Below are positions 1,786 through 29,702 of a stretch of 36,811 bases of DNA, in pieces. The notes under the pieces are model-generated. The model did no database searches. It was not told the DNA's origin and saw only the letters and a list, made by a program, of their open reading frames with translations. The position numbers were made by a program, and so were the translations under genes. Position 1 is the first letter of the stretch. Each line of letters starts with the position of its first letter. Source of the stretch: Nemertoderma westbladi (Eukaryota > Animalia > Xenacoelomorpha); assembly GCA_032718475.1 (NCBI GenBank), contig JAUCBJ010004385.1, positions 1-36,811 of the forward strand. Reading direction: 5' to 3'.

Positions 1786-3255
1786 GTAGGAACGGGATAC
1801 GAATTGTAGGAAAGAGATCCCGAATTGTTGGAACGGGATCCCGAATTGTAGGAGCGGGATCCTGAATTGTAGGAACGGGATCCCGAATTGTTGGAACGAG
1901 ATCCCGAATTGTTTGAACGGGATCCCGAATTATTGGAACTGGATCCCGAATTGTAGGAGCGGGATTCCGAATTGTAGGAACGGGATCCCGAATTGTTGGA
2001 ACGGGATCCCGAATTGTAGGAGCGGGGTCCTGAATTGTAGGAACGGGATCCCGAATTGTTGGAACGAGATCCCGAATTGTTTGAACGGGATCCCGAATTA
2101 TTGGAACTGGATCCCGAATTGTAGGAGCGGGATTCCGAATTGTTGGAACGGGATCCCGAATTGTAGGAACGGGATCCTGAATTATAGGAACGGGATCCCG
2201 AATTGTTGGAACGGGATCCCGAATTGTAGGAGCGGGATCCCGATTGTTGGAATGGGATCCCAAATTGTAGGAAAGGGATCCCGAATTGTAGGAACGGGAT
2301 CCCGATTGTTGGAACTGGATCCCGAATTGTAGGAACGGGATCCCGAATTGTTGGAACTGGATCCCGAATTGTTGGAACTGGATCCCGAATTGTAGGATCT
2401 GGATCCCGAATTGAAGGAACGGGATCCCGAATTGTAGGAAAGGGATCCCGAATTGTAGGAACGGGTTCCCGAAGTGTTGGAACTGGATCACGAATTGTAG
2501 GAACGGGATCCCGAATTGTTGGAACGGGATCCCGAATTGTTGGAACGGGATCCCGATTGTTGGAACGGGATCCCGAATTATTGGAATGGGATCCCAAATT
2601 GTTGGAAAGGGATCCCGAATTGTTGGAACGGGATCCCGAATTGTAGGAACGGGATCCCGAATTGTAGGAACGGGATCCCGAATTGTAGGAACGGGGTCCC
2701 GAATTGTTGGAACGGGATCCCGAATTGTTGGAACTGGATCCCGAATTGTAGGAACGGGATTCCGATTTGTTGGAACGGGATCCCGAATTGTAGGAACGGG
2801 ATCCCCCGAATTGTAGGAACGGGATCCCGAATTGTTGGAACGGGATCCCGAATTGTTGGAACGGGATCCCGCATTGTTGGAACTGGATCCCGAATTGTAG
2901 GAACGGGATCCCGAATTGTTGGAACGGGATCCCGAATTGTTGGAACTGGATCCCGAATTGTAGGAACGGGATCCCGAATTGTAGGAACGGGATCCCGAAT
3001 TGTAGGAACGGGATCCCGAATTGTTGGAATGGGATCCCAAATTGTTGGAAAGGGATCCCGAATTGTTGGAACGGGATCCCGAATTGTAGGAACGGGATCC
3101 CGAATTGAAGGAACGGGATCCCGAATTGTTGGAACGGGATCCCGAATTGTTGGAACTGGATCCCGAATTGTAGGAACGGGATCCCGAATTGTAGGAACGG
3201 GATCCCGAATTGTAGGAACGGGATCCCGAATTGTTGGAACGGGAACCCGAAGTTC
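1786..3255. repeat. 21-bp tandem satellite, right block (~70 units)
   Basis: Same unit as 1-767; degenerates at about 3250 (GGGAACCCGAAGTTCCGA). Confidence 0.97.
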
Positions 3256-6822: not shown

Positions 6823-7263
6823 TGGAATAATTTTACATTATTCAAAATGGAATAATTTTACATTATTCAAAATGGAATAATTTTACATTATTCAAAATGG
6901 AATAATTTTACATTATTCAAAATGGAATAATTTTACATTATTCAAAATGGGAATAATTTTACATTATTCAAAATGGGAATAATTTTACATTATTCAAAAT
7001 GGGAATAATTTTACATTATTCAAAATGGAATAATTTTACATTATTCAAAATGGAATAATTTTACATTATTCAAAATTGAATAATTTTACATTATTCAAAA
7101 TGGAATAATTTTACATTATTCAAAATGGAATAATTTTACATTATTCAAAATGGAATAATTTTACATTATTCAAAATGGAATAATTTTACATTATTCAAAA
7201 TGGAATAATTTTACATTATTCAAAATGGAATAACTTTACATTATTCAAAATGGAATAATTTTA
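6823..7263. repeat. 25-bp AT-rich minisatellite, ~17.5 copies
   Basis: Unit GGAATAATTTTACATTATTCAAAAT, near-perfect copies; three consecutive units carry an extra G. Confidence 0.97.
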
Positions 7264-10200
7264 GTTTCAGGTTTGATCTTGGCCTCCTGCTACTATTTCA
7301 GATTAAGTTATAGTTGTTTCAGTTTTCTGTGAAAAGTGTGGTAATCCACATTACAATAGGGAGACTACAGCCAAGACTAATAAAATACACTTAGCTGAGT
7401 TTGTGTTTGTGCATGTCTGGTCGAAGGTCTGCTATTGGTTTGGCTTGTAGAAAATTATTGTACATTTTACTGAATTGATTACTAGTTGACCTAAAGGTGA
7501 AGGACAGAAAGAACAAACATAATAGATTAAATAAAACGGATACGTACGTAACCATCAGTACTTCTTGTCTCGCCCCATAAGCTATAACCCAGTATAGTAC
7601 ATAACATTGATTTCTGTTTAAAGATCCAAAATTTTGGCACAGCCATAATAGTTTATCATTGGAGTTAGTTAATTGTGGACATCATAGGGCCTTTTGCTAA
7701 AGGCGATAAATAAATCGTCAGACAGACAGGCAGAGGTTTATAATGTCTAGACATTGCTTACCTATATTTGGGTATCAAAATGATTGCAGAATATGAATAA
7801 TCATGTATTCTATAACAGATAACCTGCTAATGAAACAACAATGAATGATATCATCATAGGAACTCCAAACGCACTTTTATGACAATTTTAATTTCGGCCA
7901 GACAAGACGAATTTCTGCAATTAATTGATGATAGAGGCGGTAACGTACAACTATTTGAGAGAAATTAGAAGAAAGTTATAAGATTTTTCCACTCACAATA
8001 GAATTTAATGAATTTATAAAACTAACATAATCGTAAATAATCAAAGATATATCATACCTTGGATGTGCAGTGTATAACTTGTTTACTTTTGATTTTCTTG
8101 GTTGATTGGTTTACCAATGATTGAAAGTGGATCGTATGCGGGCTCTAAAATGTAAATCCTACCATTCCTTTGCATGTTTACTATTATTTAAATCTATAAT
8201 TAATCTATTACTTAGAACATCAGTGCTCCTTATGCCCCTATGAGAGACACCAATATATCTACTACAATACTCGGGGCGATCAGAATGAGAAAAAAATTAT
8301 GATTTCATATTAATATCACAATCCCTCTAAAGTCGTGGTTGTCTAACATCATATAGTTAAAAAATATTACGACCAGGACCAAATGGATGGTTGGATTCGT
8401 TTGCACGATCAATCGGATTAAGAAAGTTTCTATACTTTACTGAAATTTTAAATAGGAAATGTTGTGAAATCATGTAACGTTAATTATCTTGGGAGTGAAA
8501 GTGAAGGAGGGGAGAAAGAGATTTAATGTACAATGTTTGAGTTGAACTTTGGTAACATTTGAATCCAGTGTCCAACATTGTGAATGATGTATAAAAAGGA
8601 CAATTGAAGATAAATAGAGAGTGAACTCATCGATTTAGATTAAATCCCAAAACAACGCGATGGTCAGCTGAGAAATCGGTACAGCTGAAAGAAACCCTAT
8701 TGGATTACAATCTAATCCAATATCAGTTGCAGGTCTGTTGCACAACACATCGTGGGGACCAAGCACTGCCAGAATTAATGAAGAATTAATGATATTCATG
8801 TGATGGACCGAACCACCCTCCAATGAATATCATTAGGAACCACCATTCCCATCACACTGAACGCGGGTCCAACCAAATAGTTTAAGTTAGAATCTATTTT
8901 AAAGCTATCATCGATTAGGTCAACCAAGTTATGTCAGCCAGTGTGAATGAGAATGGTGCCTAACAATTCGTAAAAGTCGTAAACTTATAATAATGAACAT
9001 TTTGCAGTACAATGGTATAGCTAAATTATGTTTCAAATAAATACAATATAATTCGAAAACAAATACAGTTATTTTCATTGCCTACATTGCACTACATGCG
9101 AATGTGAATATATTCTTCTTATTCAATAATAATCAATAAATGACACATTTTGACGTCACAAATCTCATATTTACACGTATAAAACTTCTAGTAAAGGCAA
9201 ATTATTATCTGGTGGCGGAGTGAGGGAGGCTTTCACATAGTCACAAGAAAATAATAAACTACTCTAGCTACAGACATACTGCCACTGTAAACAACTTACC
9301 GCACAGCTATTCGATGGTTTGATAAAATGTACTTTATTATTGGTAGCTTAGCTACATAAATAAGGCTTAACAATCACAGCTAATAAAACAGTAATTTATT
9401 TAATTTAACAATTAAAAATTATTACAATACAATAAATAGATGCTTAGATTTGCGACTAGAGTATTTTTTAACTATAGCATAATTAATTATTGCTAACTCT
9501 TATAGTACGTAAGTTGCTTTACTTTTTTGCATTTTTTTTCTGTTAGCATATTAATGCCATGTACTCGCAATGTATATTGTGTTGTGCGAGTGATTATGGG
9601 GTTGAAGTATTACATCAACCACTCCCCATGTCCCTCGTGGTCCTTTATTTAATACAAAGGTGTAACACAAAAGTCCGTGAGAGAAACAATGTTGGAAAAA
9701 ACCTTATTTACCGGTACTATAGTAGATCGGAATGACAGATTAATTGTCAATTATTGCGAAATGGTAAATCTTAATCTGTTATTGATTGCGCCAACTGCGT
9801 AGGTAGGAATATAGCACAAACAACAGTACGAAGACATGACCTACGTAATGGTGAAACTATATATATTATGAATGATTGGGAATTGGTATATATTTTGTTG
9901 GTGCGAAGAGAATCTCTGATTGCACGATATTGCAGTCTACAATCAATTTGGTGATCATTTGCAATTTATAAAAATTGCCAAAAGAACCATTGTTCGATTC
10001 TGTGACGGTCTAAGTAGTAAATAATGATACAATATTAATGTCTAATCGCAATAAACCATTGTTACATATAATTATAAAACTAATAAGAGCTAACCTTACA
10101 GTCATTGTGTAAGTTACAGCACAGATGATGAAAAAAGGATATGTAAAATGTATGGAAGAATTCAATGTTCGTATGACTGCGTAGAAAAATTAACCACCAA

Positions 10201-10635: not shown

Positions 10636-10807
10636 TCAGTAATTACCATGTTCGAATGTGTTAAATATATCCCTTTGTAGATCGATTTTAGCCGTTTCCA
10701 CCATGGCCTCTCTCTGTTTCCTTTGTTCTTCGCGATCCCGTTCCCGCTGTCCCTTCAATCGCTCCCCCTCCTGTTGTCTGTCCAACTCCTGTTGTTGTTT
10801 TTTAGCT
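10636..10807 (-). CDS. BRD4: Terminal coding exon of the BET gene, encoding the BRD4-type C-terminal motif (P-TEFb-interacting domain)
   Basis: Acceptor ctgtatattttag|A joins in phase 2 to the upstream exon ending ...GAA CG. Translation (R)AKKQQQELDRQQEGERLKGQRERDREEQRKQREAMVETAKIDLQRDIFNTFEHGNY* resembles the BRD4/fsh-L end (R.REAM...ID...Q.D....FE). TGA at 10636-10638. Not in the ORF track. Confidence 0.88.
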
Positions 10808-13800
10808 CTAAAATATACAGATAGACCACCGCTATAAGATGAATATTATTAAGATACCTTGATTGATTTTATAATATTCTATGATTAACAATTAACAACA
10901 AGCTGTTATGTAGCACATTTAGAGGATAACATATTATATAAACCAACTTCCATTGTGGCTAAATGTTTAAAAGCTGTGATTACAGCTTTAGGCGAGTTCC
11001 TTACAATACAACTGAACCTGAAACGTCATATCAGTGATCATCACGCCACCAACAATATTACAGAGAATAATCATAATGGTTAGGCCAACACCCCGAACGG
11101 AGTAAATATTAATAAACATTCAATTGTACAATAATATGATACACGTTTTGTAATTATAAAATAAGGAACATTATAAACAGTGGTAGAGGTGGTGATTACT
11201 GGCAATAATAAATTATAATAATACTAATAATTAATTATTTGTACTAGTTATACTAATAACGATCCAAAACCCGAACTTAAACCACTCCAATGATCCATCA
11301 CTTCCCCTGCAGAGGAAATATACAGATAAATTTAGAAGAAACCCTACGGAACCAGGAAATTTGGACATCAATGCGCATAAACCGTTCTAGAGCGACTCAG
11401 TAACTAACCGTTCTAGAGCGACTCAGTAAATAACCGTTCTAGAGCGACTCAGTAACTAACCGTTCTAGAGCGACTCAGTAACTAACCGTTCTAGAGCGAC
11501 TCAGTAATTAACCGTTCTAGAGCGACTCAGTAACTAACCGTTCTAGAGCGACTCAGTAATTAACCGTTCTAGAGCGACTCAGTAACTAACCGTTCTAGAG
11601 CGACTCAGTAACTAACCGTTCTAGAGCGACTCACTAACTAACCGTTCTAGAGCGACTCAGTAACTAACCGTTCTAGAGCGACTCACTAACTAACCGTTCT
11701 AGAGCGACTCAGTAAATAACCGTTCTAGAGCGACTCAGTAACTAACCGTTCTAGAGCGACTCACTAACTAACCGTTCTAGAGCGACTCAGTAACTAACCG
11801 GTCTAGAGCGACTCAGTAACTAACCGTTCTAGAGCGACTCAGTAAATAACCGTTCTAGAGCGACTCACTAACTAACCGTTCTAGAGCGACTCAGTAAATA
11901 ACCGTTCTAGAGCGACTCAGTAACTAACCGTTCTAGAGCGACTCAGTAAATAACCGTTCTAGAGCGACTCAGTAACTAACCGTTCTAGAGCGACTCAGTA
12001 ACTAACCGTTCTAGAGCGACTCAGTAATTAACCGTTCTAGAGCGACTCAGTAACTAACCGTTCTAGAGCGACTCAGTAATTAACCGTTCTAGAGCGACTC
12101 AGTAACTAACCGTTCTAGAGCAACTCAGTAACTAACCGTTCTAGAGCGACTCACTAACTAACCGTTCTAGAGCGACTCAGTAACTAACCGTTCTAGAGCG
12201 ACTCACTAACTAACCGTTCTAGAGCGACTCAGTAAATAACCGTTCTAGAGCGACTCAGTAACTAACCGTTCTAGAGCGACTCACTAACTAACCGTTCTAG
12301 AGCGACTCAGTAACTAACCGTTCTAGAGCGACTCAGTAACTAACCGGTCTAGAGCGACTCAGTAACTAACCGTTCTAGAGCGACTCACTAACTAACCGTT
12401 CTAGAGCGACTCAGTAACTAACCGGTCTAGAGCGACTCAGTAACTAACCGTTCTAGAGCGACTCAGTAAATAACCGTTCTAGAGCGACTCACTAACTAAC
12501 CGTTCTAGAGCGAATCAGTAAATAACCGCTCTAGAGCGACTCAGTAACTAACCGTTCTAGAGCGACTCAGTAAATAACCGTTCTAGAGCGACTCAGTAAC
12601 TAACCGTTCTAGAGCGACTCAGTAACTAACCGTTCTAGAGCGACTCAGTAATTAACCGTTCTAGAGCGACTCAGTAACTAACCGTTCTAGAGCGACTCAG
12701 TAATTAACCGTTCTAGAGCGACTCAGTAACTAACCGTTCTAGAGCGACTCAGTAACTAACCGTTCTAGAGCGACTCACTAACTAACCGTTCTAGAGCGAC
12801 TCAGTAACTAACCGTTCTAGAGCGACTCACTAACTAACCGTTCTAGAGCGACTCAGTAAATAACCGTTCTAGAGCGACTCAGTAACTAACCGTTCTAGAG
12901 CGACTCACTAACTAACCGTTCTAGAGCGACTCAGTAACTAACCGTTCTAGAGCGACTCAGTAACTAACCGGTCTAGAGCGACTCAGTAACTAACCGTTCT
13001 AGAGCGACTCACTAACTAACCGTTCTAGAGCGACTCAGTAAATAACCGTTCTAGAGCGACTCAGTAACTAACCGTTCTAGAGCGACTCAGTAACTAACCG
13101 TTCTAGAGCGACTCAGTAATTAACCGTTCTAGAGCGACTCAGTAACTAACCGTTCTAGAGCGACTCAGTAATTAACCGTTCTAGAGCGACTCAGTAACTA
13201 ACCGTTCTAGAGCGACTCAGTAACTAACCGTTCTAGAGCGACTCACTAACTAACCGTTCTAGAGCGACTCAGTAACTAACCGTTCTAGAGCGACTCACTA
13301 ACTAACCGTTCTAGAGCGACTCAGTAAATAACCGTTCTAGAGCGACTCAGTAACTAACCGTTCTAGAGCGACTCACTAACCGTTCTAGAGCGACTCAGTA
13401 ACTAACCGGTCTAGAGCGACTCAGTAACTAACCGTTCTAGAGCGACTCACTAACTAACCGTTCTAGAGCGACTCAGTAAATAACCGTTCTAGAGCGACTC
13501 AGTAACTAACCGTTCTAGAGCGACTCAGTAACTAACCGTTCTAGAGCGACTCACTAACTAACCGTTCTAGAGCGACTCAGTAACTAACCGTTCTAGAGCG
13601 ACTCACTAACTAACCGTTCTAGAGCGACTCAGTAAATAACCGTTCTAGAGCGACTCAGTAACTAACCGTTCTAGAGCGACTCAGTAATTAACCGTTCTAA
13701 AGCGACTCAGTAACTAACCGTTCTAGAGCGACTCACTAACTAACCGTTCTAGAGCGACTCAGTAACTAACCGTTCTAGAGCGACTCACTAACTAACCGTT

Positions 13801-14834
13801 CTAGAGCGACTCATTAAAACCGTTGTAGAGCGACTCAGTAACTAACCATTCTAGAGCGACTCAATAAATAACCGTTCTAGAGCGACTCAGTAATTAACCG
13901 TTCTAGAGCGACTCTGTAACTAACCGTTCTAGACCGACTCAGTAACTAACCATTCTAGAGCGACTCAGTAACTAACCGTTCTAGAGCGACTCAGCAACTA
14001 ACCATTCTAGAGCGACTCAATAAATAACCGTTCTAGAGCGACTCAGTAACTAACCGTTCTAGAGCGACTCAGTAACTAACCATTCTAGAGCGACTCAGTA
14101 ACTAACCATTCTAGAGCGACTCACTAACTAACCGTTCTAGACCGACTCAGTAACTAACCGTTCTAGAGCGAGTCAGTAACTAACCGTTCTAGAGCGACTC
14201 AGTAACTAACCGTTCTAGACCGACTCAGTAACTAACCGTTCTAGAGCGACTCAGTAACTAACCGTTCTAGAGCGACTCAGTAACTAACCGTTCTAGAGCG
14301 ACTCAGTAACTAACCATTCTAGAGCGACTCAATAAATAACCGTTCTAGAGCGACTCAGTAACTAACCATTCTAGAGCGACTCAATAAATAACCGTTCTAG
14401 AGCGACTCAGTAACTAACCATTCTAGAGCGACTCAATAAATAACCGTTCTAGAGCGATTCAGTAACTAACCGTTCTAGAGCGACTCAGTAACTAACCGCT
14501 CTAGAGCGACTCAGTAATTAACCGTTCAAGAGCGACTCTGTAACTAACCGTTCTAGACCGACTCAGTAACTAACCGTTCTAGAGCGACTCAGTAACTAAC
14601 CGTTCTAGAGCGACTCACTAACTAACCGTTCTAGAGCGACTCAGTAACTAACCGTTCTAGAGCGACTCAGTAATTAACCGTTCTAGAGCGACTCAGTAAC
14701 TAACCGTTCTAGAGCGACTCACTAACTAACCGTTCTAGAGCGACTCAGTAACTAACCGTTCTAGAGCGACTCAGTAATTAACCGTTCTAGAGCGACTCAC
14801 TAACTAACCGTTCTAGAGCGACTCAGTAACTAAC
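10808..14834 (-). other. GT-AG phase-2 intron of the BET gene (4027 bp), mostly tandem array
   Basis: Donor CG|GTTAGT at 14835/14834 and acceptor TTTTAG|A at 10808/10807. Joining them restores the reading frame into the conserved CTM. Confidence 0.82.
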
Positions 14835-14845
14835 CGTTCTAGAGC
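11379..14845. repeat. 26-bp tandem array, ~133 copies; the unit is the BET exon/intron junction
   Basis: Plus-strand unit ACCGTTCTAGAGCGACTCAGTAACTA; sense-strand unit GCTCTAGAACG|GTTAGTTACTGAGTC. The first copy overlaps codons A-L-E-R of the coding exon. Confidence 0.97.
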
Positions 14846-17800
14846 TTCCATCTCCTCAGCTTCCCGCCGCTTCTCCGCCTCGAGTTTCAACCTTTCTTTC
14901 TCGTTGGCCTCGTGTTGCTGCTTCCGGACAACTTCCTGGAGTTTCAGAGTTTTTTCTCTCTCCTCCTTCTCTTTGGCCAACATTTTAAACTCCCTGAAAC
15001 TCGTGGAGGCGTTCTCCACGTTGGCGGTAGTGGAGGAGGTGGCTTTACTCTTGGCGTGCTTGGACCACGCGCTGAGGTTGGCCTTGATGTCGTCCCGCTC
15101 CTCTCCGTCCTCCTCTTCGTGGACTCCCTCCCCGTTGGGGAGCATTCCGATCCCGTAGGTGACGGCCGCCCCGACGTGGTTGCTCTCCGCCGCGTCGGGG
15201 TGCGGTTTGGCGGGGTTCGCCGACGATTTAACCGCGGTGTCGCTGCTCGCTGCGGCGGCGACTGGCGTCGACGTTCCGTGCGTGTAAACTTTCCCAAACA
15301 CGGGGGCACTGGGCGTCAGTGGGGGCGGCCCGTCGGGCGCGGGTTGGGCCGGCTTCCCAGGGGGCGGCGCGGTCGGCGGCCGCTTTATCGGCTTACCAGT
15401 TTGCCGCGGCGCCGCGGCGGGGTTGGGGGAATGCGTCGCGGGTTTCTTCACGCCTCCCGGGTGAACACCACGACCCCCCACGCCCCCTGGATGGACCCCC
15501 CGACTCCCCACGCCCCCCTCCAGACCGCCCGCCTTCCCTCCCAACGCGTTGTGCTTCGCCGGGTCGTCGGAATTACTGGAATCGCTGCCGCTCGACGAAC
15601 TCGAGTCCGAACTATCGCTATCCGAACTGCTCGACGAGTTACTCAGTTTACTTTCCGACTTCCGTTTAGTTTTCCGCGGCTTTTTACTCCCCATTTGCTC
15701 GAGTTTTTTCTCAACTTCTTTCTTCTGCATCGCCATTGCGACAGCTGCGACTTTATTAGCGACGACGCCGGGGTTCTTCTTGGTGTAGGGCTTCCGCGGT
15801 TTCTTCCGCAGACACGAGTGGACGTACTTCTCGAGTTCCCGGAGCGTCGAGGGTTTCAGCGTCTCGAAGTCGATCTCGATCTCGTCCGGGTTGGAATCCC
15901 GCAACGAGGGCTCCCGATTCTGGATTATGTGGACGACGCGGCCCAACTTGTCACCGGGCAGCTTGTTGATATCGAGACTGAGTTGCCGCTTCTCGTCGTA
16001 CGTCATCGGCTTCGCGAGGTCCTCCTCCTCGCTGTCAAACGCGCCGGACTTCTTCCGGCGGTAGGCGCGTTTAATTTGCTTCTTGGGCGGCGACGCGCCG
16101 ACCGCCACGCCGGGGGATTTCTTCTTGTGGACCGCGGCGGCCCCCCCGGAAGCCGATGGAGTCACGGCCGGTTTAGGTGTGGCCGTAGGGCCGTTGTTGG
16201 TCGGGGGTTTCGGCCTCGGCGGGGCGATCGGCCTTTCCTCCTTCGCGACGACAACCTGCTGTTTAACAACCGGGACGTCCGCTACCGGCGCTCCAACAAC
16301 CAAAGGTTTCTTCACCTTCTTCCGTCGCTTTTTCTTCCCTTTGGATTTATTATAAGCGGCGCTGATCTCCGCTATCTGGTTCATTAGGCTGTGCAACTGA
16401 CTCTGCAGTTTGGCTAGTTTCTGTTGCTTCTCGGTGTCTGAATCGCCGCTCTCCTCGCTACTGGAGTCCTCCTCATAGGAGCTCCCGGAGCTGACCGCCG
16501 TAGTCGCGGACTCTGTCGGGCCGACCGGCTGCGGCTCCGTCGCCGGCCGTTCCAACATCTTCGCGTATCGGATCTCGAATACCGCGGATAGCTGCTTGGC
16601 CATGGTGACGATCTCGTACTCCGGGGGGTTGTACTTGTAACAATTGTCGAACATCACCCGAACGTCGGCCGCGAATTCCGCCGGGGATTTATATTTACTT
16701 GAGTCGAGTTTCGATTTTATAGTTTTTAGATCCATCGGGTACTTTATTTTCTCGTGGTAATCCGTGAGGTTTAAGGCCTCGGCGTCCACGGGGTTATAGA
16801 AAGGCCACGCGTAGCGCGAGTGTTTCTTACTCTGGAGTTCCCGGCAGATATTGAGACAATCCTTCAACTGATCCTCCAGAGTTTTAGGTTTAACTTGTTT
16901 AACGATGGCGTGCGGCGTCGTCGATGTGGTGGAGAACTCCTTGAGGGGTTTCTTTATGAGACGAGGCGATCGGGCTGTGACGGGGGAGCTGGTCGGATCG
17001 ACGGATATCGATAGAGGCGTTACAGGGATCCCGGAGGGAGTCAACGAGAAGCTCTCGGGAACCTCCGGGTTGGGGGTCGTCGTGTCCGCTTTGCGTTTGA
17101 TTCCTTTCTTCGGTTTGGATGGAAGTCGAGGTCGCGGCATCATCGGGAAGCCGGTCGGCATGTTGGTGGAGGTGACGTTGTACTGCGGGAGCGACGGCTT
17201 GGGGACTTTGGGCGGTTCCGAGACTGCGATTGTGGGTGTGGCGAAGGCGTGGCTCGCTACCGGTGCAGATACGGACTGCGTCACTGCGGGAGTCGGCGTC
17301 GCCGAGGGTTTCTTACTCACCGGAGCCGGTACAACCACCGGAGGCTTCGCTTTCGCTACTGGTTTCTTTTTCTTCGGACTGGCCCCCGGCAAAGGAAACT
17401 TGCTTCTTCTAGAAACTGAACTGCGTTTTCTAATGTTTTTTAACGGGATCGGGACTTCAAACTCATCCGATGGCATCGCCGATAACTTAGATAAGAACGC
17501 TTTCTCCAAGGACTGCGCCATTAGAACAACGTCTTCCCCAGGTTTGTTATACAAATAACAGTTCGAGAACATGAGGTTGAAGTCAGCTATACATTCCTTG
17601 GCGGAAGTGTAATAATTAGTTTCAAGACGTTCCTTTATTGTGCCGAGATCAATCGGGGTTTTTATAAGATCGAAGTAATCGTGAAGACCAAGACCTTCCG
17701 TGTCTACAGGAACATGGAACGGCCAGGCAAATTGTTCCTTCCAAACTGACGGCATAACAGTTTTCTGTAAGTATTGCAGCTGATTTGTACTCATTTTGGG

Positions 17801-17947
17801 TTTGGGAGTGGGTACTAAAGAGTCATTATCGTCGTACTGTGACCGACTTGTAGGGGTATCTGTCGTTGATGTGGGTTCTGACCCCGAATACCCATGTGTG
17901 GCATCACCCCCAAGGTTGTTCCCGTTATGAGTATCGAAACTGCTCAT
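14835..17947 (-). CDS. BRD4: BET-family protein (BRD2/3/4/T, fs(1)h-like), main coding exon: BD1, BD2, ET domain, Ser/Asp-rich tract, Pro-rich region, start of C-terminal domain
   Basis: BD1 (TNQLQYL...FAWPFH.PVD...[16 protein letters not shown]), motif [15 protein letters not shown]2 ([15 protein letters not shown]...NCYKYNPP), and ET domain ([62 protein letters not shown]). The last 6 aa of the track ORF (LVTESL) are intron read-through. The symbol denotes family likeness, not proven orthology. Confidence 0.95.
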
Positions 17948-18746: not shown

Positions 18747-19937
18747 TTAAGCATTATTCCATGTGACCTTTAATAAACGATAAGGACCATGGAATGGCCG
18801 ACCGAATTTATGTAATTTTCCTTTCACTGTATCTGGACGGTATAAAAATACCCTGTCTCCAACGTTATATTTAATTGGTTGAGTTCTCTTTGTCATATTG
18901 CTTCTTATATTGGTCTTGTTTCTTTTCAAAGTTTTCCCGTGCAAGTTCCCATGCAAATGTAAGGTTCGCGGCTAGTTCAGTTTTATAATCATCCAAATCT
19001 ATTTGGTAAATAGTTTTTGGGGAATTCAGAGTTGTTTCTGTTGGTAATCTAGCATCTCTCCCGTAGAGTAAGTAAAAAGGTGACTCCTTTGAAGAACTAT
19101 ACTCCGAAGTTCGATAAGCAAATAATAAGCAAGATAAATCATCATCCCAATCCGTTTCATGTCAATCCAAAGTTTTCGAAAGCATGGATAACAATGTTCG
19201 ATTAAATCTCTCTACTAAACCGTCTGTCTGGGGATGATAAGCGCTGGTGTTGATCTTTTGCATTCCACATAATTTACACACATTTGTAAATACTTAAAAG
19301 TTTGTAAAACTTTGTAAATACTTAAAATAAAAAGTTTGCTCCCCGATCTGAAAGAACCTTCCATGGAACACTACAGCACTATGACGAGATATATAATCAA
19401 CAAAACAACAGCAATTGTTGTTGCACTTTCATCTTGTAATGCATAGGCCTCAACCCATTTCGTCAAGTAATCACTGATTATTGCACAATATCTATTTCCA
19501 CTCTGGGTTAATGGGAGCGAAAGTATATCAATTGCCACTCGATCGAATGGTCCCTCTACTTGTAAGGGCATTAATGGCGGTTTATTTGCACATCCCGGAT
19601 TCCGAGTAGCACATTTCAAGCATGAATGAGTCCATTTGAAAATATCCTTTCGCATTTTTGGCCACCAATATTGTAATTTTAGTATAGACCATAGATCTGA
19701 TAAATGTCCCCCAAACCGTCCTCCATGTACTCCCGACCATATTTTATGCCTCCAACGTTCTGGTACTGCCAAACGAGGTTGGCCTGATTTTCCAACATCA
19801 TCAAATTTATAAAGCAATCCATCTATTACTGCTGTCGAGTTTCTTTCAGTTGACAATTGGCGAAATAAATCTTCATAATCAGGTAATGCATCCATTTGAT
19901 GATAGTCAATTAATGCTTTATATAAAGGGTCTACCAA
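18747..19937 (-). pseudogene. Gypsy integrase remnant
   Basis: H...GH...WWPKMRKDI...C..C zinc finger, rve core start, and GPY/F module, split across frameshifted ORFs. Confidence 0.88.
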
Positions 19938-20187
19938 TTGTAGACTTTGTATAACATATGTCTCTCCCTTTAAGTTGTTTCAATATCCGACTTTATCTCT
20001 GCCTCTTCTTTTGATTCAGATAAACTCTCAGGCCTGTCGTTAAAAGTGGTACAAGTTCCGTGCATTCGAGATAAAACATCTGCATTCGCATTAGCTTTAC
20101 CTGGTCAATGGAAAACATTCTCGGGCGAAATATAATCAGTAAGATCTATCACCCAACGTGCCAATTGGCCTTTTAATTCATGGCGAC

Positions 20188-23100
20188 TAGACCGATCCGA
20201 AAATATTCAAATTGAGATACAGAGAAGACTTGTCAGCTTAATTGGTTCTATTTCCCATAATATTAAGTTGTGCCAAGTATGGAATCATAATGTTGAACAT
20301 GCAAGCTACTGGAGCTAAATGAATTTTTGACTTATCGCAAAATTTATCGCCCGATGAGCTTGAGCGCGGTTAAGGGACAGTTTTCATGGAATGCATTAGA
20401 TTTGAAAAATACTGATAACATCACGTTTGTCATATGTTTATCTTTAATTTGAATGGCTGCTTTAGGGTACTGTACTGTACAGTTGTAGTAATGTAATACC
20501 TGTAGGCCTATACAAATGACACTACATGACGCCTATACTGCGCTACTGCACTTCTGATCCACTCTTGCATTTTGGATGTTCTGCATTCCACTGTCCTACC
20601 TACCGGTACCGGTAGGCCTACCCTAAAACACAGGCCTTTGTACTATCTTCTACTGATGTAGCCTACTACATACAGTAGGTTTAGTGAGTGATATTCAGTT
20701 TCTACAGTACTGTACCGGTAGCCTATTATCCAATTATCGAATTTTGAGTTATATATTATAAGGTATAGATTATAATACAATGGCAAGTTGCTACAGTACA
20801 CGGAAACAACGATCTGAATATCTCCTGATTGGAAAGAGCCTTGATAGTAATTTTCGAAATTGCCATTTACCATTTAACATTTCTGTTCTTCAAAAAATGG
20901 TCTATTTTTGTCGAGAGGAAGGTATTCCCAAGAATAAGTCAGCTGGATTAGTCGCATCAGAAATCCGGAAAATATGGGTGGAGGCAGGTTCTATGTACTA
21001 TCATAATGAATTGAATGTCCTTGACAAGGTAAGAAAGCTGTATGAGAGGTGGCTTTCAATTGATAAACAACCACCTGAATGTAGAAAAACTGGCAAAACA
21101 TTGGAAAGGATAAATAAATTGTCTGAAGAGATGAACAAGCTATTTGATATTTCTGTTAAGAAACACGATGGTATGCTGCTGCCTGAAGAACGTGAATGGA
21201 TTCAAAAACTTAGACAGGGAGAAGATCTACCATTTCTGAAATCAAGGGATTTGAAATACGAAGAGGAAGCTATGAAACAAAAAGACAAACTGGACCGTAA
21301 ACTTGACAGGGAACGGAAAGAAATGCTTAGAAAGCAAAATGACTTGGACAAAATTGTTGAACTTGATATGTCGAGGTCTGCTTCAGAGGATGATAGTACT
21401 GACTCTGATGTTGACTATCTTCCACCATCTTCAGCAACATCAAGCAAGAGGTGTGCCTCAGTGCAACTGATGATGCCACGGAACATAATGAATGACCAGA
21501 CAGTAGCTCAGACTGCTGATCGCATTGGAATTTCATCTGGAGCTGCAACAGCCTACACTGCAGCAATTATCAAGGCCAGTGGAGGTAATCTAGATCAGGT
21601 CACACTCAGCAAAAGTAGCACACGAAGTGGCCGGTCAGCATCTCGAGCAGCAAGGGCCAAATATATCAAGGACTCCTTTGATCCTGGAGAACACAAAATT
21701 GCAGTCCACTGGGATGGGAAAAAAATGGCTCATCTGAAATGCTCCCTTACAGATGTTGATCGATGTGTTGTAGCCATAACTGGCAGTGGTATCCCAAATG
21801 CTGATGGCAGCACAAAGTACACAAAACTGTTGGGAATTGGAGCTGCAAGTACTAGTTCCTCTCGGGACATTACTTCAATAGTACAACGTTACATTTCTGA
21901 ATGGAATATCAAAGCCTTGGTAGCATTTCTTGTCTTTGACACGACTAATTCTAATTCTGGTTGGCTGGATGGCACCTGTGTACAGCTGGAGAAGTGGTTA
22001 GATCGGCGAGTGATATGGCTTGCCTGCCGCCACCACATTGGGGAGGTTATAGTCAGTGCAGTACACAGCCTGGTATTTGGTGCAACCAGTGGCCCTAGTC
22101 CCCGATTCCATGGTAGACTACGAGAACAATGGATAGCCCTAGATCTAACAAAGGGTCAATGTCTACCTGATACTGATAAATATGTCCAGGAAAGACATGA
22201 CCTTAAGGAACTGTTGGGCACTATTAACTGCCGTGCCGATTATCGAGAACTTCTTGTACTTGCCATTTTTCTACTTGGTGGGGAATACCCACATACATTC
22301 TATCAGCCTGGTGCTGATTCCAACGCCAGGTGGATGGCCAGCCTGATGTATGCTTTTAAATTATATATATTCAGAGGTCAACTTCACCAGAAGACACAAG
22401 GTAGTATCCATCTTGAGCAGCGACTTGAGCGCTTTGTTCAGTTTGTTGCCAGCACATATGTTGGATGGTGGATACGGTGTCCAGTGCTAGTGGATGCTCC
22501 CAGAAATGATTTGGAGTTATATTTCAGGGCACTGAATTTATCTGATGTTGAACTGGGACAAGTGGTAATAAAGAAACTAACTGGCCATCTGTGGTACCTG
22601 AGGCAGGAAGTGGTACCTGTTAGTCTGGCAAATGATCGGGTCTCCAATGAACAAAAGGAGAGGATTGCTATTGCGATGCTCGAAGCTAAACCAAATGATG
22701 ATCGACGGGATCTTTCTGTGGCAGCAGTGGTCAAGAAAGGAACCAAGATTAGTCGTGAGGTTCCACCAAACAATGTAAACCTGAACAATGGCACAACTTT
22801 GGAGGATCTCATTGGCCCTGATTCATGGCTAATGCCCCAGTTGTTGGGGTTGTCATTTGATTGGTTACACCAAAAACCAGCAACTTGGGTACTATATGAT
22901 GATTACAATCAATTTTGTTGTATTATCAATGACAAGGATCCCGTGAATGACCTGTCAGAAAGACTTATCCGTACCCAGGCAATTTACAATGGACTCCTTA
23001 CTAAGGATGAGAAGGAACATCAAGCTGTACTACAAGTCGTTGAAGACAGTCGCAAGAAAGTTCCAGATTTTCAAAAGCGTACTCTCAAGGAAAGACTCTG

Positions 23101-23613
23101 ATGGACCTAGTATAGAAACATATACTGAAATTAATACAGTACTAACTTTGTTGAGTTGATTAGATCATAGGTACTATTCTAATAATTGTTCTGATATCTG
23201 TTGCATTGTATTTTCTATGTTTTATATACCAGTCCTGCCAAGAATTAAGTAGTGCTTTCAGAGTTATATACTGGGCGATATGCGATATATGAAATTGCGT
23301 TATTATGATATATTAGTAATAGTTTAAAAAGTTACAAAAAGCATATATTCCAGCCATTCAAATGAAAGCTTATGGCATTATGATCACATTAGTAACATCA
23401 CATTTTTAAAAAAATGGAACCATAAAAAATTTATCGACTTCGCGATAAGCTATACCGGCGCTTGATCCAGTAAACTTTATTAACCCCCAGTAGCCCACAT
23501 GATAAAGTTATCACGAAACAGCTTATCATTTGGTGGTCAGTGACCAAATTGGAACAAATTTCATCAACAAGTCTTCATCATTTTGAAAAAAGTTAAAATT
23601 TCAGTGCAGTCTA
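20188..23613 (+). mobile_element. Full-length 3426-bp hAT-superfamily DNA transposon (possibly hATm-like)
   Basis: Perfect 8-bp TSD ATGGCGAC (20180-20187, 23614-23621). Imperfect TIRs: TAGACCGATCCGAAAAT versus TAGACTGCACTGAAATT (reverse complement of the right end). Removing it restores the Gypsy frame GLLLGRHELKGQLARW. Confidence 0.9.
20780..23101 (+). CDS. DDE transposase, 773 aa, uninterrupted
   Basis: Candidate catalytic residues in VHWDGK, VFDTT.SNSG and NDLSER. CxxH motif (ACRHH) after the second Asp and Trp motif ARWM. Lies between TIRs with an 8-bp TSD. Confidence 0.85.
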   Translation: MASCYSTRKQRSEYLLIGKSLDSNFRNCHLPFNISVLQKMVYFCREEGIPKNKSAGLVASEIRKIWVEAGSMYYHNELNVLDKVRKLYERWLSIDKQPPECRKTGKTLERINKLSEEMNKLFDISVKKHDGMLLPEEREWIQKLRQGEDLPFLKSRDLKYEEEAMKQKDKLDRKLDRERKEMLRKQNDLDKIVELDMSRSASEDDSTDSDVDYLPPSSATSSKRCASVQLMMPRNIMNDQTVAQTADRIGISSGAATAYTAAIIKASGGNLDQVTLSKSSTRSGRSASRAARAKYIKDSFDPGEHKIAVHWDGKKMAHLKCSLTDVDRCVVAITGSGIPNADGSTKYTKLLGIGAASTSSSRDITSIVQRYISEWNIKALVAFLVFDTTNSNSGWLDGTCVQLEKWLDRRVIWLACRHHIGEVIVSAVHSLVFGATSGPSPRFHGRLREQWIALDLTKGQCLPDTDKYVQERHDLKELLGTINCRADYRELLVLAIFLLGGEYPHTFYQPGADSNARWMASLMYAFKLYIFRGQLHQKTQGSIHLEQRLERFVQFVASTYVGWWIRCPVLVDAPRNDLELYFRALNLSDVELGQVVIKKLTGHLWYLRQEVVPVSLANDRVSNEQKERIAIAMLEAKPNDDRRDLSVAAVVKKGTKISREVPPNNVNLNNGTTLEDLIGPDSWLMPQLLGLSFDWLHQKPATWVLYDDYNQFCCIINDKDPVNDLSERLIRTQAIYNGLLTKDEKEHQAVLQVVEDSRKKVPDFQKRTLKERL

Positions 23614-23621
23614 ATGGCGAC

Positions 23622-24490
23622 CCAAAAGTAATCCTTTTATTGCTGCGTGATCTGTGTAAACCAATGTTGTTAAGGCTCTTCTTGTATAAATATGATTGAT
23701 TACAAGCCCATTTAAGTCCATATACCTCCAACTGAGTTGAAGTATATCGTTGTTGAGAGTTCGTCAGCTGTCTTGAAGCATATGCTATTGGTTGTAATTG
23801 ACCGTCATCATCAGCTATCTGGGATAAAACAGCCCCAAATCCGGTTTCACAAGCGTTAGTTTCTAAAATAAATGGTCTTGAATGATCTGGGTAACGCAAT
23901 ACTGGTGTAACCATTCTTTAAATTCACAAAAACTCAATCGTTGGTCTATCCCAAAGCAATAAGCCGTATTTTTCTTTAATAATGAGGTCAAAGGTCGGAC
24001 AATCTTTCCGTATCCTTCTATAAATTTTCGATAATAATTCGATAATCCCAGAAACGTCGAAGTTCCTTTAAATTCTTTGGTTTTGGAAAGTTTATGATTT
24101 TGTCTACAGTCTCTGGATTAGGAAGTAGTCGTTTCGTGTAACGATGTGTCCTAAAAACTTAATTTGAGATCTACCAAACTTGCACTTTCGAGTTCTCAGT
24201 TTTAAATTTGCCTCCCGTAGCTGATTTAATACTGCTGCCACATCTTCCAAGTGGCTATCGAAATCCGGTGAACAAACAAGTACATCATCTATATAGACAA
24301 AGCATGGTTTTCTTCCATTTACTACCACATCTTTAAGTATTTTCTCCATTGTTCTTTGAAACGTTGCTGGCATGCGTCCAAACGCTAAAACAATGAATTC
24401 ATAGAATCCCGCTGAACATGCAAATGCCGTTTTTGGAATAGCTTCCTCCGTTAGTGGAAGCTGCCAATATCCAGTAACAATATCCAGTAT
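23622..24490 (-). pseudogene. Gypsy reverse transcriptase / RNase H remnant
   Basis: YIDD catalytic motif, KTAF, PATFQRTM, KCKF, and RNase H N-terminal motifs; frameshifted. Confidence 0.9.
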
Positions 24491-27050
24491 CCAACAACAG
24501 TAGTTTACTACTCCGTTCAAGGGGTTATTAGAAATTCATTCTCACTCCACCCAGTAACAATAGCTGAAGTCGGTAAAATATTCCAGAATATAGATGTCAA
24601 GAAAGCAACTGGCCCTGACCTAATCCCCACCCCACTAGAGTTATTAGGGATGGCCTAGACTCGCTAATAAAGCCGTTCACACACATTGTTAACTTACCCA
24701 TAGAAACATCAACATTTCCACAGATCTACAAAACTGCTCGCTTAAACCCCATTTACAAGAAAAAAGGATCCAATCTCGTTGGTGGAAACTTTCGGCCAAT
24801 TTCATTATTACAAATTCTATCAAAGATTCTAGAACGCATCGTATTCAGCCAATGGGTGTACAACTTGGTATCAAACAACATTATGAACCCTCTGCAGTCT
24901 AGTTACCAACAACGATATTCAACAGAGTCATATCTTATGCTATTGGACAACCATATACCCGTGTCTATTGATAATGGACAACTCAAAGGGATGGTGCTAA
25001 TTGACCTGCTTAAAGCATTTGACTGCAAAGATCACCAAACCGTAATCCAAAAGATTGGGGCTATGGGAGCCACTCAGAGTACCTGCAATTGGTTCTCATC
25101 TTATCTGTCTGACAGAGAGAAATATGTCGCCATAATAGGTGAAACGCGATCAAGCTGTATAACTAACGATAATGGGGTTCCCCGGGGTTAAATTCTTGGT
25201 GTCTTGCTTTATATCAGTGATACAAATGACTTTCCCCAAGTTATCGAAGATGAAATACTAGCAGCCAAATTTGCCGACGACACAGGCCTAGCCTACAGCA
25301 ATACATGCTCCGAAAGCATATCTACCTCTCTGAGTAATACCATGGACCATGTCTCCCAATGGTGCACCGAGAACAAACTCTCCATAAACTTCGACAAAAC
25401 AGAATGTATCCTTTTCGGCACACACCAACGACTTTCTACTGCAGTTGGAAGTTTATTGCTGTGGGAAACGCATACCAAACCAGAAATATGTCACCTACCT
25501 GGGAACAGAAATAAATCAACGATTAACTGGTGAGGAAATGGCAACTAAAATATTAAAGAGGCAACACCAGACTGAAGTTTCTTCATTGAAACGCCCAGAT
25601 TCTCGTCCGATCCATTCGCAGAATGCTTTGTAACTCTCTTATTCAGCTTCATCTCGACTACGCAGCGTCTACGTGGTTTTTCACTATTTCAGCCAGACTT
25701 CACCAGCAGCTCGAAGCCCTCCAGCGGAAGTGCATTCGATTCTGCTTGGGCCTCGGACCCAGAGCGCACATCGAGGCTGCCTATTACGTGGACATTAACT
25801 GGCTTCGAGTCGAGGCTGTTATCCTTTCCTGGATGTATAAGGTAAAACACAGTCAAGCACCTCAAAACCTAAACGATCTTATACGCTTCCATGAGCCCAC
25901 CTACTGTCTGCGATCAACCAGTGAACCAGCCTCAGTCCCTCAGAGAAATACGTTATACGGCCAGAATACGTTTAGCTTCCTCGGTCCAAAGTTGTGGAAT
26001 GAACTCCCAGCCACCATCACAGACTCAATCTCTTTAGTTGTTTTTAAACATAACGTTAAGAAATACTACCTAGAAAAATTAACCAACCATTCAATATCGG
26101 CATTCATCTACTAACTAATAATATACCGGTATTTTTCTTTTTACTCAAATCGTATAAAACTTTTAATTAACGAACACACCTTCTTTAAATAAACTCCCAA
26201 TTTAAAGCCCGAGCTTTTAAAAACTCGATGTTAACCCAGACTTTTCAATAAACATTTAATACATCCACTTTTTATACTTAATTAATAATAACTTTATAAA
26301 ATTATTTTATAAAAATTGTATCTATTTTTTTGTTATTTTTACATTAATCTACGGTAGCACACTGTACTTCATATAATTTATATTTGTACTTTTAATTTAG
26401 TCTCAGTCGATAAGTTTACTTACTACCGCCAGAATACACCAATTACTATTAGTTGGGACCCTTATAGAAACGCGGTTTACCGCATAAGGCTATTCCTCCA
26501 TTTTAACAATCAAACTTGGTGCAGCTGTATTTTTTGCCAATATAATATTTATTTATACTTAATAATATATATATTTTAGAGTTAATAATATTTTAATAGT
26601 AACTTTAATAGAGCTATGAAAACTACGAATCTTGAACGGTTGTAAAACTTTTTAATGAACGCAATTGGTGCAACTACTACTACTACTGTACAGTATACAT
26701 TTAATTTGAGCTTGATTTTTCAATAATTTGGTAATAATAATATCTTTCAGCAGTCTTTAATTTTAATATTAAGATTTTCAGAGTCAGTAATTAGTAATTT
26801 AATTTGACTTTATCCCACCGCCACACCACCAGGAACTTATTTACATCTAATGAATGACCTACAGTAGTTATTAATGTATTGTCTGTTGTCTCCAATATAT
26901 GTTTGTATCACCAGGAATTACTTTCTGCGCATGACATTGACATATCATTAACTTACATATTTTAATCAATATTACTGGTACCGTGTAAAATCATGAGTTT
27001 AATTTGTTTTTAATGTAAATTTGGAAAAGAAAATCAATCAATCAATCAAT
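24491..27050 (+). mobile_element. 5'-truncated L2/CR1-group (Crack/Daphne-like) LINE with degenerate ORF2, AT-rich 3' UTR and (AATC)n tail
   Basis: KKATGPDLIP, NFRPISLL..LSKILERIV, IDLLKAFD, GVPRG, FADDT, LDYA...W and FSFLGPKLWNELP motifs. ORF2 ends at 26114; AATC repeats at 27032-27050. The extent of the 3' UTR is inferred. Confidence 0.82.
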
Positions 27051-27059
27051 ACCTTTCAG

Positions 27060-27179
27060 GCGCCGGTTTCACGATTTTTGACATTTTTTGATAAATATGA
27101 AAAACCGGCCCTGTACCGGCTCCAGTTAGGCCGGTTTATTTTTAGAACCAGCCAAAATTCGCGAACCGGTCGATTCCTA
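27060..27179. mobile_element. Possible orphan MITE end
   Basis: Several (A)CCGG motifs ending in ...ACCGGTCGATTCCTA, similar in layout to the TAGG-ended MITE at 32017. No partner end was found. Confidence 0.35.
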
Positions 27180-27232
27180 AACAATACAACCGTACAAAGT
27201 GCAAAGCATGCAAATTAATTTCACCATTTTGA

Positions 27233-27553
27233 TTAGGGAAAGGAGCAGGTTACAGAGGCGGGCTTTTCTAACCAAAACAATAAACAATAACTTTACCAAT
27301 AACCAAAACAATAAACGGCCACTTTACCATTTGGGGAAAGGAGCAGGTTACAGAGGCGGGCTTTTCTAACCAAAACAATAAACGATCACTTTACCAATAC
27401 CCAAAACAATAAACGGCCAATTTACCAATTAGGGGAAAGGAGCAGGTTACAGAGGCGAGTTTTCTAACCAAAACAATAAACAATCACTTTACCAATTGAG
27501 GGTAAGGTACAGGTTACAGAGGCTGGATTTTCTAACCAAAACAATACCTAAAC
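27233..27553 (+). repeat. Short tandem array (4 cores, ~98-bp period) of a dispersed motif
   Basis: Core GGGAAAGGAGCAGGTTACAGAGGCGGGCTTTTCTAACCAAAACAATAAAC; related single copies at ~3436-3488 and ~6268-6312. Confidence 0.85.
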
Positions 27554-27904
27554 GATAACGACAGTCAGTAGAAAAAATTGTTAATTAAAAAAAATTGTCA
27601 AAGGTGATTGTTTCAGTGTTTCATAAAATAAGTAATAATAGTAAATAAGTACATAAGTAGATATATATATATATAGAAGGGTTTCAAGGTAATTGCCCTG
27701 CAGTAGTTACTACAGTACCAGTACTGCTACCAACTGCCAACATAGTCTGTGGTCTGAGACTACATCTAACGGAAGCTGTTGTCAGGTTGTGTTTAGTTTA
27801 TACACCTGTACGTACGTACACCAATACTGGTGAACCGGTCAGCCGGTACAATAAATAACAGCTGCCAGTAGGCCTAATATTGCAGTTGTAAAAAATTCAG
27901 TAAA

Positions 27905-29702
27905 AAATCCATCCATGATGCTGATGACAGCAGGCAATCATCCCAGGCATGGAAATCGATCAACTTGCTTACTGCAGTACTGGGTGGAAAAGCCAACCAA
28001 CCACCAAGGTTAAGGCTGAATCACCAGCCGATCGCCTCAATGGTTGGAAGGCCCACTTTGAAAGGCTCCTCAATAATGACAGGGTATTGCCTGATAACTT
28101 TATAGAAGTAAAAGTGTCTGAGTCTGTACTCCCAGATATTCCCATTGGCGATATCTCCTTTGCAGAAGTGAAGGCTGCTGCAAAGAGCATTAAGACCAAT
28201 CGTGCCAGTGGAGTAGATGGTGTTCCCCCTGAGGTCTTTAAAATACCTGAGTGTTTAAAGCTCATCTATCCCATCATAGTAGACATGTACCGAACAACAA
28301 GAGTCCCACAAGAAATGAAAACAAAAAAAGTTGGTGCCAGTTCCCAAGAAGGGCAACCTAACACTCTATGGTTCTTTTCGGAGAATCTCATTGATCTCGA
28401 TTGCTGCAAAGCTATACAATAGAATTCTATTAAATCGCATCAGGGATCCCATTGAGAGACTGCTCCGTGGAAAACAGAATTTGGCTCCGTAAAGGTCGTG
28501 GGACCATGGAGCCCATTTTGGCACTTAGAAGGATAATTGAAGAGTTATCAAAAAAGAAAGACAGGCATCTGGCTGTTATCTTTGTTGACTTCTTCAAGGC
28601 CTTTGATTCAGTCTCTCGCTCACATATGTTCAGCATACTTTCATTATATGGGATTCCTGATGAAATTATTGCAGCAATCAGATCAGTATACGATGGTTCG
28701 ACAACATTTGTGTCTACTGTTGATGGTGACACAGAACCATTTGAAGTGTTATGGGGCGTCCTCCAGGGAGACAAACTTGCACCATTCTTGTTCATAATTG
28801 TGGTTGACTATGTTCTACGCATGTCCTTAAATCATCATAATGATGGTGGGGTGATGATACCTCCACCTACAGGCTCCAGAAGTCAAGGAAATCCTGCCAA
28901 GTACCTAACTCAGAATCACTAGAGTGAGCCCAACGGCTCCTCAGCTCATTAGAACATGCTGCTTCTAGTGTTGGTCTTTTTATTAACTCCAGAAAGACCA
29001 AAATTTTGACAATTAACTTTTAAAGTTCTCAGCAAGTCTCTGATCGGATGAGCATAAGCTCAAAGGATGGTATGCTTGAGTATGTGGACGACTTCTGTTA
29101 CCTGGGATCATGATTCCGGAAGTCAGGTGAGGACCTTCGAATACGTAAGGGAAAGGCATGGGCAGCCTTGAATAGGCTTTCCAGGATTTGGAAGTCACCG
29201 AGAATTAATCGGAAACTTAAGGTCCGGTTATTTAGAGCAGCAGTAGTTCCAGTACTCCTCTATGGGAGTCCATGCTGGGCTCTAACTGCTGAGGACACCA
29301 AATCTCTGGATGGCACATTCACAAGAATTCTACGCCGGGTTCATTGTGTCAAGTACAATGCACACATCTCCAACCAGACACTATATAACATTGGAGGTGT
29401 TTCATTGGTTCCCCCAAGCTTGACACTAGAACAAAATCGCCTCCGCTTTGCAGGACATTGCTTTCGCCGTGAGGACCAGCCAGTGCATAATCTTGCACTT
29501 TGGCAGCCTCATGGAGTGAATAAGCATGGTGGACAGCCCATCACTTTCTTGAGACGCATCTTAAAGGACACTGGCCTTGAAGATGCGGCTGATCTAGCAA
29601 ATGTTATGGGTGATAGGGAGTTGTGGTGGCGCAATTTTGTCGACAAGCCGGCACAGCATTCTTAAAAATGCAGCTGCAATGCAGCATGCCGATACTAGTA
29701 GT
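27905..29702 (+). mobile_element. RTE-like LINE, longer 5'-truncated degenerate copy of the family at 768-1785
   Basis: WKAHFERLLN, RASGVDGVPPE, FVDFFKAFDSV and GVLQGD motifs. Near-identical to 773-1785 from ~28726 onward. A 34-bp deletion removes FADD. Stop at 29665, then a (TAG)n tail. The 5' boundary is approximate. Confidence 0.9.

Follow-up and report, generated by a model that had tools for sequence, protein, structure and literature searches.

The window (the whole stretch of DNA analysed, 36,811 nt of contig JAUCBJ010004385.1 from Nemertoderma westbladi) harbored a BET (BRD4/Fsh-like) gene on its reverse strand. The large coding exon of this gene (14835..17947, -) extended over 3,113 nt from the ATG at 17947 to its last base at 14835. 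It encoded the Pfam Bromodomain (PF00439) in two stretches (E=7.3e-41) and, 3' of the bromodomains, the Pfam BET/ET domain (PF17035, E=7.7e-28). As the exon ended with the CG of an arginine codon, the intron following it was in phase 2. Homologues of the gene were present across Bilateria in a protein similarity search. The protein was 41-47% identical to 25 chosen BET proteins, all phyla alike (BLAST), compared to ~46-59% identity among BETs of other phyla, and thus formed a long branch. Its best relatives of nearly the same length displayed 33% identity over the C-terminal part and ~43-46% over residues 40-720, and among 1,259 candidate shorter proteins none matched residues 880-1044 at E<=0.001.

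The last coding exon (10636..10807, -) provided the third base of the arginine codon at the junction and 56 further codons, followed by the TGA at 10638-10636. It encoded the C-terminal P-TEFb-interacting motif (CTM) of BET proteins, with a C-terminus reading DIFNTFEHGNY. The assignment, already proposed by an earlier reading made from the letters alone (hereafter the sequence-only reading), was borne out by a match to Pfam BRD4_CDT (PF17105) that scored 30.5 bits where the cut-off is 27 (E=2.4e-7), covering profile positions 8-43 of 44. The match corresponded to residues 33-68 of a 69-aa stop-to-stop frame at 10636-10845, that is 10642..10749 (-) by hand-derived coordinates. The CTM end was divergent, yet the anchor residues REAM...ID...D...FE were kept in the alignment; many invertebrate BET entries in the database were without PF17105. 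When the large exon was joined by script from donor 1 (14835) to the acceptor at 10807, an open coding sequence of 3,285 nt (1,094 aa) was obtained.

The last intron (10808..14834, -; 4,027 nt, of which ~3,450 nt were tandem array) ended at its 3' side with ...ctgtatattttag. It was the sole interruption of the BET coding region seen within the window, and therefore the sole place where splicing could change the protein. BD1, BD2, ET and the long C-terminal region lay uninterrupted in 14835-17947 (-), with the CTM alone split off by the intron. BET genes of other animals contain many introns, and the uninterrupted exon could, from its sequence, reflect a retrocopy-like origin or an intron-poor lineage. 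Downstream of the TGA, the first poly(A)-signal hexamers (ATTAAA/AATAAA) were located at 9644..9653 (-) by motif scan, which would imply a 3' UTR of ~1 kb if they serve. The same hexamers were absent from the gene strand of the 4,027-nt intron in a scan for these two motifs, so that a stable intron-terminated mRNA was not obviously provided for, and intronic polyadenylation as a source of stable CTM-less mRNA was disfavoured on this hexamer scan.

A second, stronger-looking acceptor, tttcctctgcag/G (11306-11328, -; exon start 11306), was found ~75 nt past the end of the array. The same 13 nt (TATCTGTATATTT, gene strand) stood, letter for letter, ahead of both the real acceptor (10811-10823) and the second one (11306-11328). 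Joined to donor 1, the second acceptor (exon start 11306) would read R and 24 further amino acids, then TAA (hand-derived).

Most of the last intron consisted of a 26-nt minisatellite (11380..14845, -), for which TRF returned 133.5 copies with 94% matches. Read on the gene strand, the unit was GTTAGTTACTGAGTC followed by GCTCTAGAACG. The array comprised 133 full units, of which 131 measured 26 nt and the remaining two 24 and 22 nt, as well as a partial one; the terminal CTCTAGAACG came after the 133 units and was followed by unique sequence starting with GTTTAT. A 21-mer of the unit, searched with up to 3 mismatches, gave 133 matches, all within 11378-14824, against none in 100 shuffles. The exact 26 nt of the exon end had no match in the metagenome contigs scanned.

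The array did not begin in the intron. The span 14809-14845 (-) was made of the last 11 exon bases, GCTCTAGAACG (14845-14835), and the first 26-nt unit (14834-14809), and the junction read, in gene direction, ...GAG GAG ATG GAA GCT CTA GAA CG / GTTAGTTACTGAGTCGCTCTAGAACG / GTTAGT... Since the array opened with the final 11 bases of the coding exon (14845-14835), each unit repeated the exon tail together with the 5' splice site. The first unit of the tandem array thus spanned the exon/intron boundary, and the units repeated the donor signal itself. GT opened all 133 units, in the hexamers GTTAGT (100), GTTATT (19), GTTAAT (13) and GTTTTA (1). The 9-mer ACG/GTTAGT was found in 86 of 134 array sites when the authentic one was counted; downstream of donor 1, the same 9-mer occurred at 85 sites and the same hexamer at 99.

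Position +5 of the donor was the most variable of the unit, with G changed to A or T in 32 of 131 units, and unit position 9 came second (29/131). Both changes at +5 weaken pairing with U1, while GT, +3, +4 and +6 were invariant in the 131 units. This variability could hint at a spread of weakened donors. As the +5 variants were propagated by block duplication, their counts are not independent events, and a purging of donors was therefore not concluded. In the unit map, a string of 13 units had three exact recurrences and a further one in which a single unit differed, and such higher-order blocks appear consistent with what is expected from minisatellite evolution by unequal exchange. Three further long minisatellites were present in the window: two with a 21-nt unit, at 1-767 (x ~36) and 1786-3251 (x ~70), and one at 6823-7263 with a 25-nt unit (x 17.5, 98% matches).

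The origin of the unit was traced by aligning the last 150 residues of the donor-1-spliced protein to the 165 C-terminal residues from each of 12 homologues, hand-picked from 120 listed (a brachiopod, seven molluscs, a horseshoe crab, a beetle, a coral and one JGI entry). The spliced 1,094-aa protein was collinear with all 12 across the junction, and the last exon aligned with their ...RRRREAMA..ID.N.QSD.MA.FE... The splice junction sat inside the motif EE.E-ALE[RK]A[RQ], conserved across phyla. The exonic letters GCT CTA GAA CG encoded the A-L-E-R of EE.E-ALE[RK]A, a motif shared by the brachiopod, mollusc, chelicerate, beetle and coral homologues. Because the exonic bases of the unit encode conserved residues (A-L-E-R), the array was born from a genuine exon/intron junction, and because the junction lies inside a motif shared across phyla, donor 1 is probably the ancestral, productive site. 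The array was thus identified as an amplified exon/intron junction carrying old coding sequence in its unit, and the locus is a very large new example of the known junction-spanning ("mirage"-type) minisatellites. Exon capture of a dispersed satellite was rejected, as the exonic 11 nt encode a motif found across phyla and the 21-mer occurred nowhere else in the window.

Four donor-like sites near the exon end were as follows. Donor 1 (ACG/GTTAGT, 14829..14834, -), the putative authentic 5' splice site, was the sole site yielding 1,094 aa with the CTM. Donor-like site 2 (14803..14808, -) was identical to donor 1 over the 9-mer ACG/GTTAGT, and an inner donor-like site, TTA/GTGAGT (14795..14800, -), was found in unit 2, where the exon would be extended 34 nt past the donor 1 junction. 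Donor-like site 3 (ACG/GTTAAT, 14777..14782, -) had lost the G at +5. Read-through past the exon end at 14835 gave CGG TTA GTT ACT GAG TCG CTC TAG, and the frame from the ATG at 17947 stopped at 14813 after 1,044 aa ending with ERLVTESL (ORF list and translation). The in-frame TAG (14813..14815, -) was a shifted copy of the exonic CTCTAGA, reached by read-through or from any downstream donor.

Outcomes per donor were obtained by building with a script, for each of 134 sites, the product of exon 1, the extra units and the last exon. Site 1 led to the 1,094-aa protein, while the other 133 of 134 all led to 1,044 aa ending with ERLVTESL. The distance from the stop to the junction was 4, 30, 56, 82 ... 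nt for sites 2 onward. Sites 4, 7, 10 ... brought back the frame of the last exon, yet all of them included the TAG, and the CTM was joined in frame without a stop by donor 1 only. The 1,044-aa product retained the whole long C-terminal region and lost only the last 56 of 1,094 aa. Translation and scripted splicing thus confirmed the geometry described by the sequence-only reading: its read-through letters, the frame of the TAG, the ERLVTESL ending and the lengths of 1,044 and 1,094 aa, as well as its statement that all downstream donors end the protein at 1,044 aa (133/133 sites). Its distances of 4 and 30 nt between the stop and the junctions of donors 2 and 3 were likewise recovered, with 56 nt at site 4. 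The period shifted the exonic CTCTAGA into a stop frame, as had been claimed: 26 being 2 mod 3, the exonic GCT CTA GAA becomes G CTC TAG AA in the next copy.

The same reading had termed this stop built-in, which overstated its significance. From GTs in the non-coding parts of the window (778 GTs), the first in-frame stop in the same phase was met after a median of 7 codons, the value also observed here, and for 52% of these background GTs it came within 7 codons. In the consensus unit, stop triplets occurred in all three frames, so that no frame could cross a unit of the array, and stop-free runs in the array reached 17-22 codons at most. The TAG is an automatic by-product of the length and letters of the unit. 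The stop is at chance level and carries no special information, while the array itself is more than chance. A stop standing out from chance would be expected of a switch; here the stop lay at the background median.

Published junction minisatellites displayed two kinds of donor use. The VNTR in intron 7 of F7 (37 bp x 5-9), described by Borensztajn et al. 2006 (PMC1557585), uses the most upstream site alone, and its pseudo-sites are reported as functional but not selected. The junction minisatellites of LMNB2 and PDGF are likewise reported to use the authentic donor alone (PMC1557585). According to the same source, the authentic donor and the two nearest pseudo-sites are used in IFI6 (6-16; donor reiterated 25 times), and the authentic donor and the next two in CBS intron 13 (15-20 repeats) (PMC1557585). 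The locus studied here resembled F7 in that the first monomer spans the exon/intron boundary, the authentic donor is followed by identical pseudo-sites and is not itself a strong consensus. It differed by its 133 units of 26 bp against 5-9 units of 37 bp, and by its source of evidence, as first-site use was shown experimentally in the mammalian gene and would be read from letters here. With IFI6 and CBS it shared a reiterated donor at the exon/intron junction, although pseudo-site use was shown there, in contrast to sites recognised here on sequence. The period of IFI6 is 12 nt, which stays in frame and adds residues, in contrast to the 26-nt period that shifts the frame into a stop here.

Also close in kind were the amphioxus "mirage" minisatellites of Adh3 and the globins BflGb6/BflGb9, tandem duplicated exon/intron boundaries with AG/GT signals in their units (PMC3087553). 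They are of unstable length and evolve in concert, and the RT-PCR reported with them suggests that regular splicing is undisturbed (PMC3087553). The likeness to these tandem boundary duplications in an invertebrate chordate has limits: the amphioxus globins contain few units, each of 150-160 bp (in BflGb6, 3-6 units), against 133 short units here, and a defined consequence at the protein level, the loss of the CTM, belongs to the present array. What is particular to this array is its frame-shifting period and the removal of the CTM by every wrong donor choice.

Taken with these precedents, the locus was best interpreted as follows, a reading that we favour with some reserve. A 26-nt minisatellite spanning the junction has carried the final 11 bases of the exon, together with the 5' splice site, into the last intron in 133 copies, and the TAG, which lies in frame 22 nt past the exon end, is a real by-product of this array. 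Donor 1 is likely the site normally used and the TAG probably forms no regulated switch; with donor 1 as the likely normal site, the TAG would cut short, ahead of the CTM, no more than the occasional mis-spliced product. Splicing at sites 2-3 or at the inner GTGAGT would then amount to minor noise, with a 1,044-aa protein devoid of the CTM or an unstable RNA as its product. We infer the dominance of donor 1 from F7, LMNB2, PDGF, the intact CTM exon and the purine-rich exon upstream. Over its last 120 nt, the exon contained 70% purines and 16 GAR triplets; the corresponding values for the first 120 nt of the array were 52% and 9. Purine-rich exonic enhancers would favour the nearest donor, and the purine-rich exon end directly upstream of donor 1 could act as such an enhancer.

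Other features counted against donor 1. It was weak: 6 Watson-Crick pairs could form with the 5' end of U1, position +3 was mismatched, and its predicted duplex with U1 reached -5.4 kcal/mol compared to -14.0 kcal/mol for a perfect site. Pairing of the inner TTA/GTGAGT with U1 was predicted to be as good (-5.7 kcal/mol), and the inner GTGAGT, a perfect GTRAGT core, was present in 24 of 131 units, those with G at unit position 9. Splicing here may also follow intron definition, in which case donors closer to the acceptor would be preferred; the distance to the acceptor was ~600 nt for the last full donor and 4 kb for donor 1. Analogy for donor 1 is further limited by the published precedents being vertebrate or cephalochordate genes with at most ~25 pseudo-sites, against 133 here. 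RNA structure was dropped as a reason for the choice of donor 1, its predicted mean unpaired probability (0.39) being no distinction from the 0.17-0.55 of donors 2-12.

These features bear on a rather doubtful but still credible alternative, in which donor 2, the inner GTGAGT (+34) and donor 3 are used in a leaky, unregulated manner as in IFI6 and CBS. A constant share of transcripts would then either encode the 1,044-aa protein without the CTM or end as unproductive RNA, and the structure or length of the array would dampen full-length BET with no switch involved. In its favour, donor 2 is the same 9-mer as the weak donor 1, the inner GTGAGT pairs equally well with U1, and the stops only 4-30 nt before the junction for sites 2-3 would make the RNAs stable by the mammalian rule. 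The constitutive use of the second and third sites in IFI6 and CBS, and a link between the 31-bp VNTR of CBS and reduced enzyme activity, as given in a title cited there, point in the same direction (PMC1557585). Set against it, pseudo-sites of identical sequence are described as wholly unused in F7 (PMC1557585), regular splicing appears undisturbed in amphioxus (PMC3087553), and the purine-rich exon context is nearest donor 1. An array working as a length-tunable rheostat, with U1 occupancy, array length and allele setting the share of CTM-keeping transcripts, seems very improbable; if true, the ratio of full-length to CTM-less BET would differ among individuals or cell types.

The sequence-only reading had gone further and proposed a regulated switch with three outcomes, full-length protein from donor 1, a stable CTM-less one from donors 2-3, and transcripts degraded by NMD from donor 4 onward or upon intron retention. 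The geometry was as stated, with the CTM in the last exon and splicing able to alter the protein only at this intron, the sole one of the coding region. BRD4 CTM interacts with P-TEFb, and in mammals BET isoforms that lack the CTM differ in function (PMC8446420); the many invertebrate BET entries without PF17105 also speak in favour of this reading. One BET gene could, as far as its sequence goes, give rise both to proteins that carry the C-terminal P-TEFb-interacting motif and to proteins that lack it, as for BRD4-L/BRD4-S. Drosophila Fs(1)h-L/S is a comparable pair of long and short BET isoforms, and known short BET isoforms end soon after the ET domain via an alternative 3' exon. The predicted truncation here, via cryptic donors, would cost the protein just the final 56 of its 1,094 aa and leave the long C-terminal region in place, unlike BRD4-S. 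The 50-55-nt rule was described for EJC-dependent NMD (PMC8339359) and is given as the dominant NMD mode in mammals, possibly in other vertebrates (PMC3325483). In the three-outcome scheme the distances (4 and 30 nt vs at least 56 nt) therefore stood, while the split into stable and degraded RNAs is an extrapolation of a mammalian/vertebrate rule to this invertebrate. The stop is at chance level and any 26-nt unit of such make-up would yield it, and an array evolving by unequal exchange is a poor substrate for a precise switch. In the known cases donor use is reported as constitutive and independent of cell type, mostly with the first donor (PMC1557585). No regulatory element came to light in the analysis; the regulated switch found no support and is judged very unlikely.

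Impaired splicing of the last intron by the array, in a fast-evolving or redundant BET copy (such as a paralogue with hardly any introns) whose CTM exon is being lost, or an array size that is partly an assembly artefact, was considered highly improbable. The single coding intron, the long branch (41-47% identity vs ~46-59% among other phyla), the divergent CTM end and a PF17105 score barely above the cut-off would suit a decaying copy, but both exons were open, all four domains were recognisable and the CTM anchor residues were kept.

The locus presents 133 5' splice sites that are nearly identical, and 85 of these reproduce the 9-mer of a weak authentic site exactly. The array is a convenient natural test of how a non-vertebrate spliceosome picks the first of many identical donors, as every wrong donor gives the same readable outcome (1,044 vs 1,094 aa). 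If downstream donors were used, the length of the junction repeat would determine, in a natural case, how much of a master transcription regulator carries the tail that recruits the elongation factor.

Outside the BET gene, no Rfam family was detected at gathering score anywhere in the window. An open frame of 779 aa (20762-23101, +) matched no Pfam family and was flanked by opposite-strand fragments of an LTR-type retroelement, namely an integrase zinc-binding domain (19371-19979), RNase H (23564-23917) and RT (24104-24535). Several broken reverse-transcriptase frames were found at 24619-29665 (+), with RVT_1 at 24619-25191 and 28434-28922; located upstream of the BET gene, these broken RVT_1 frames look like decayed non-LTR elements.
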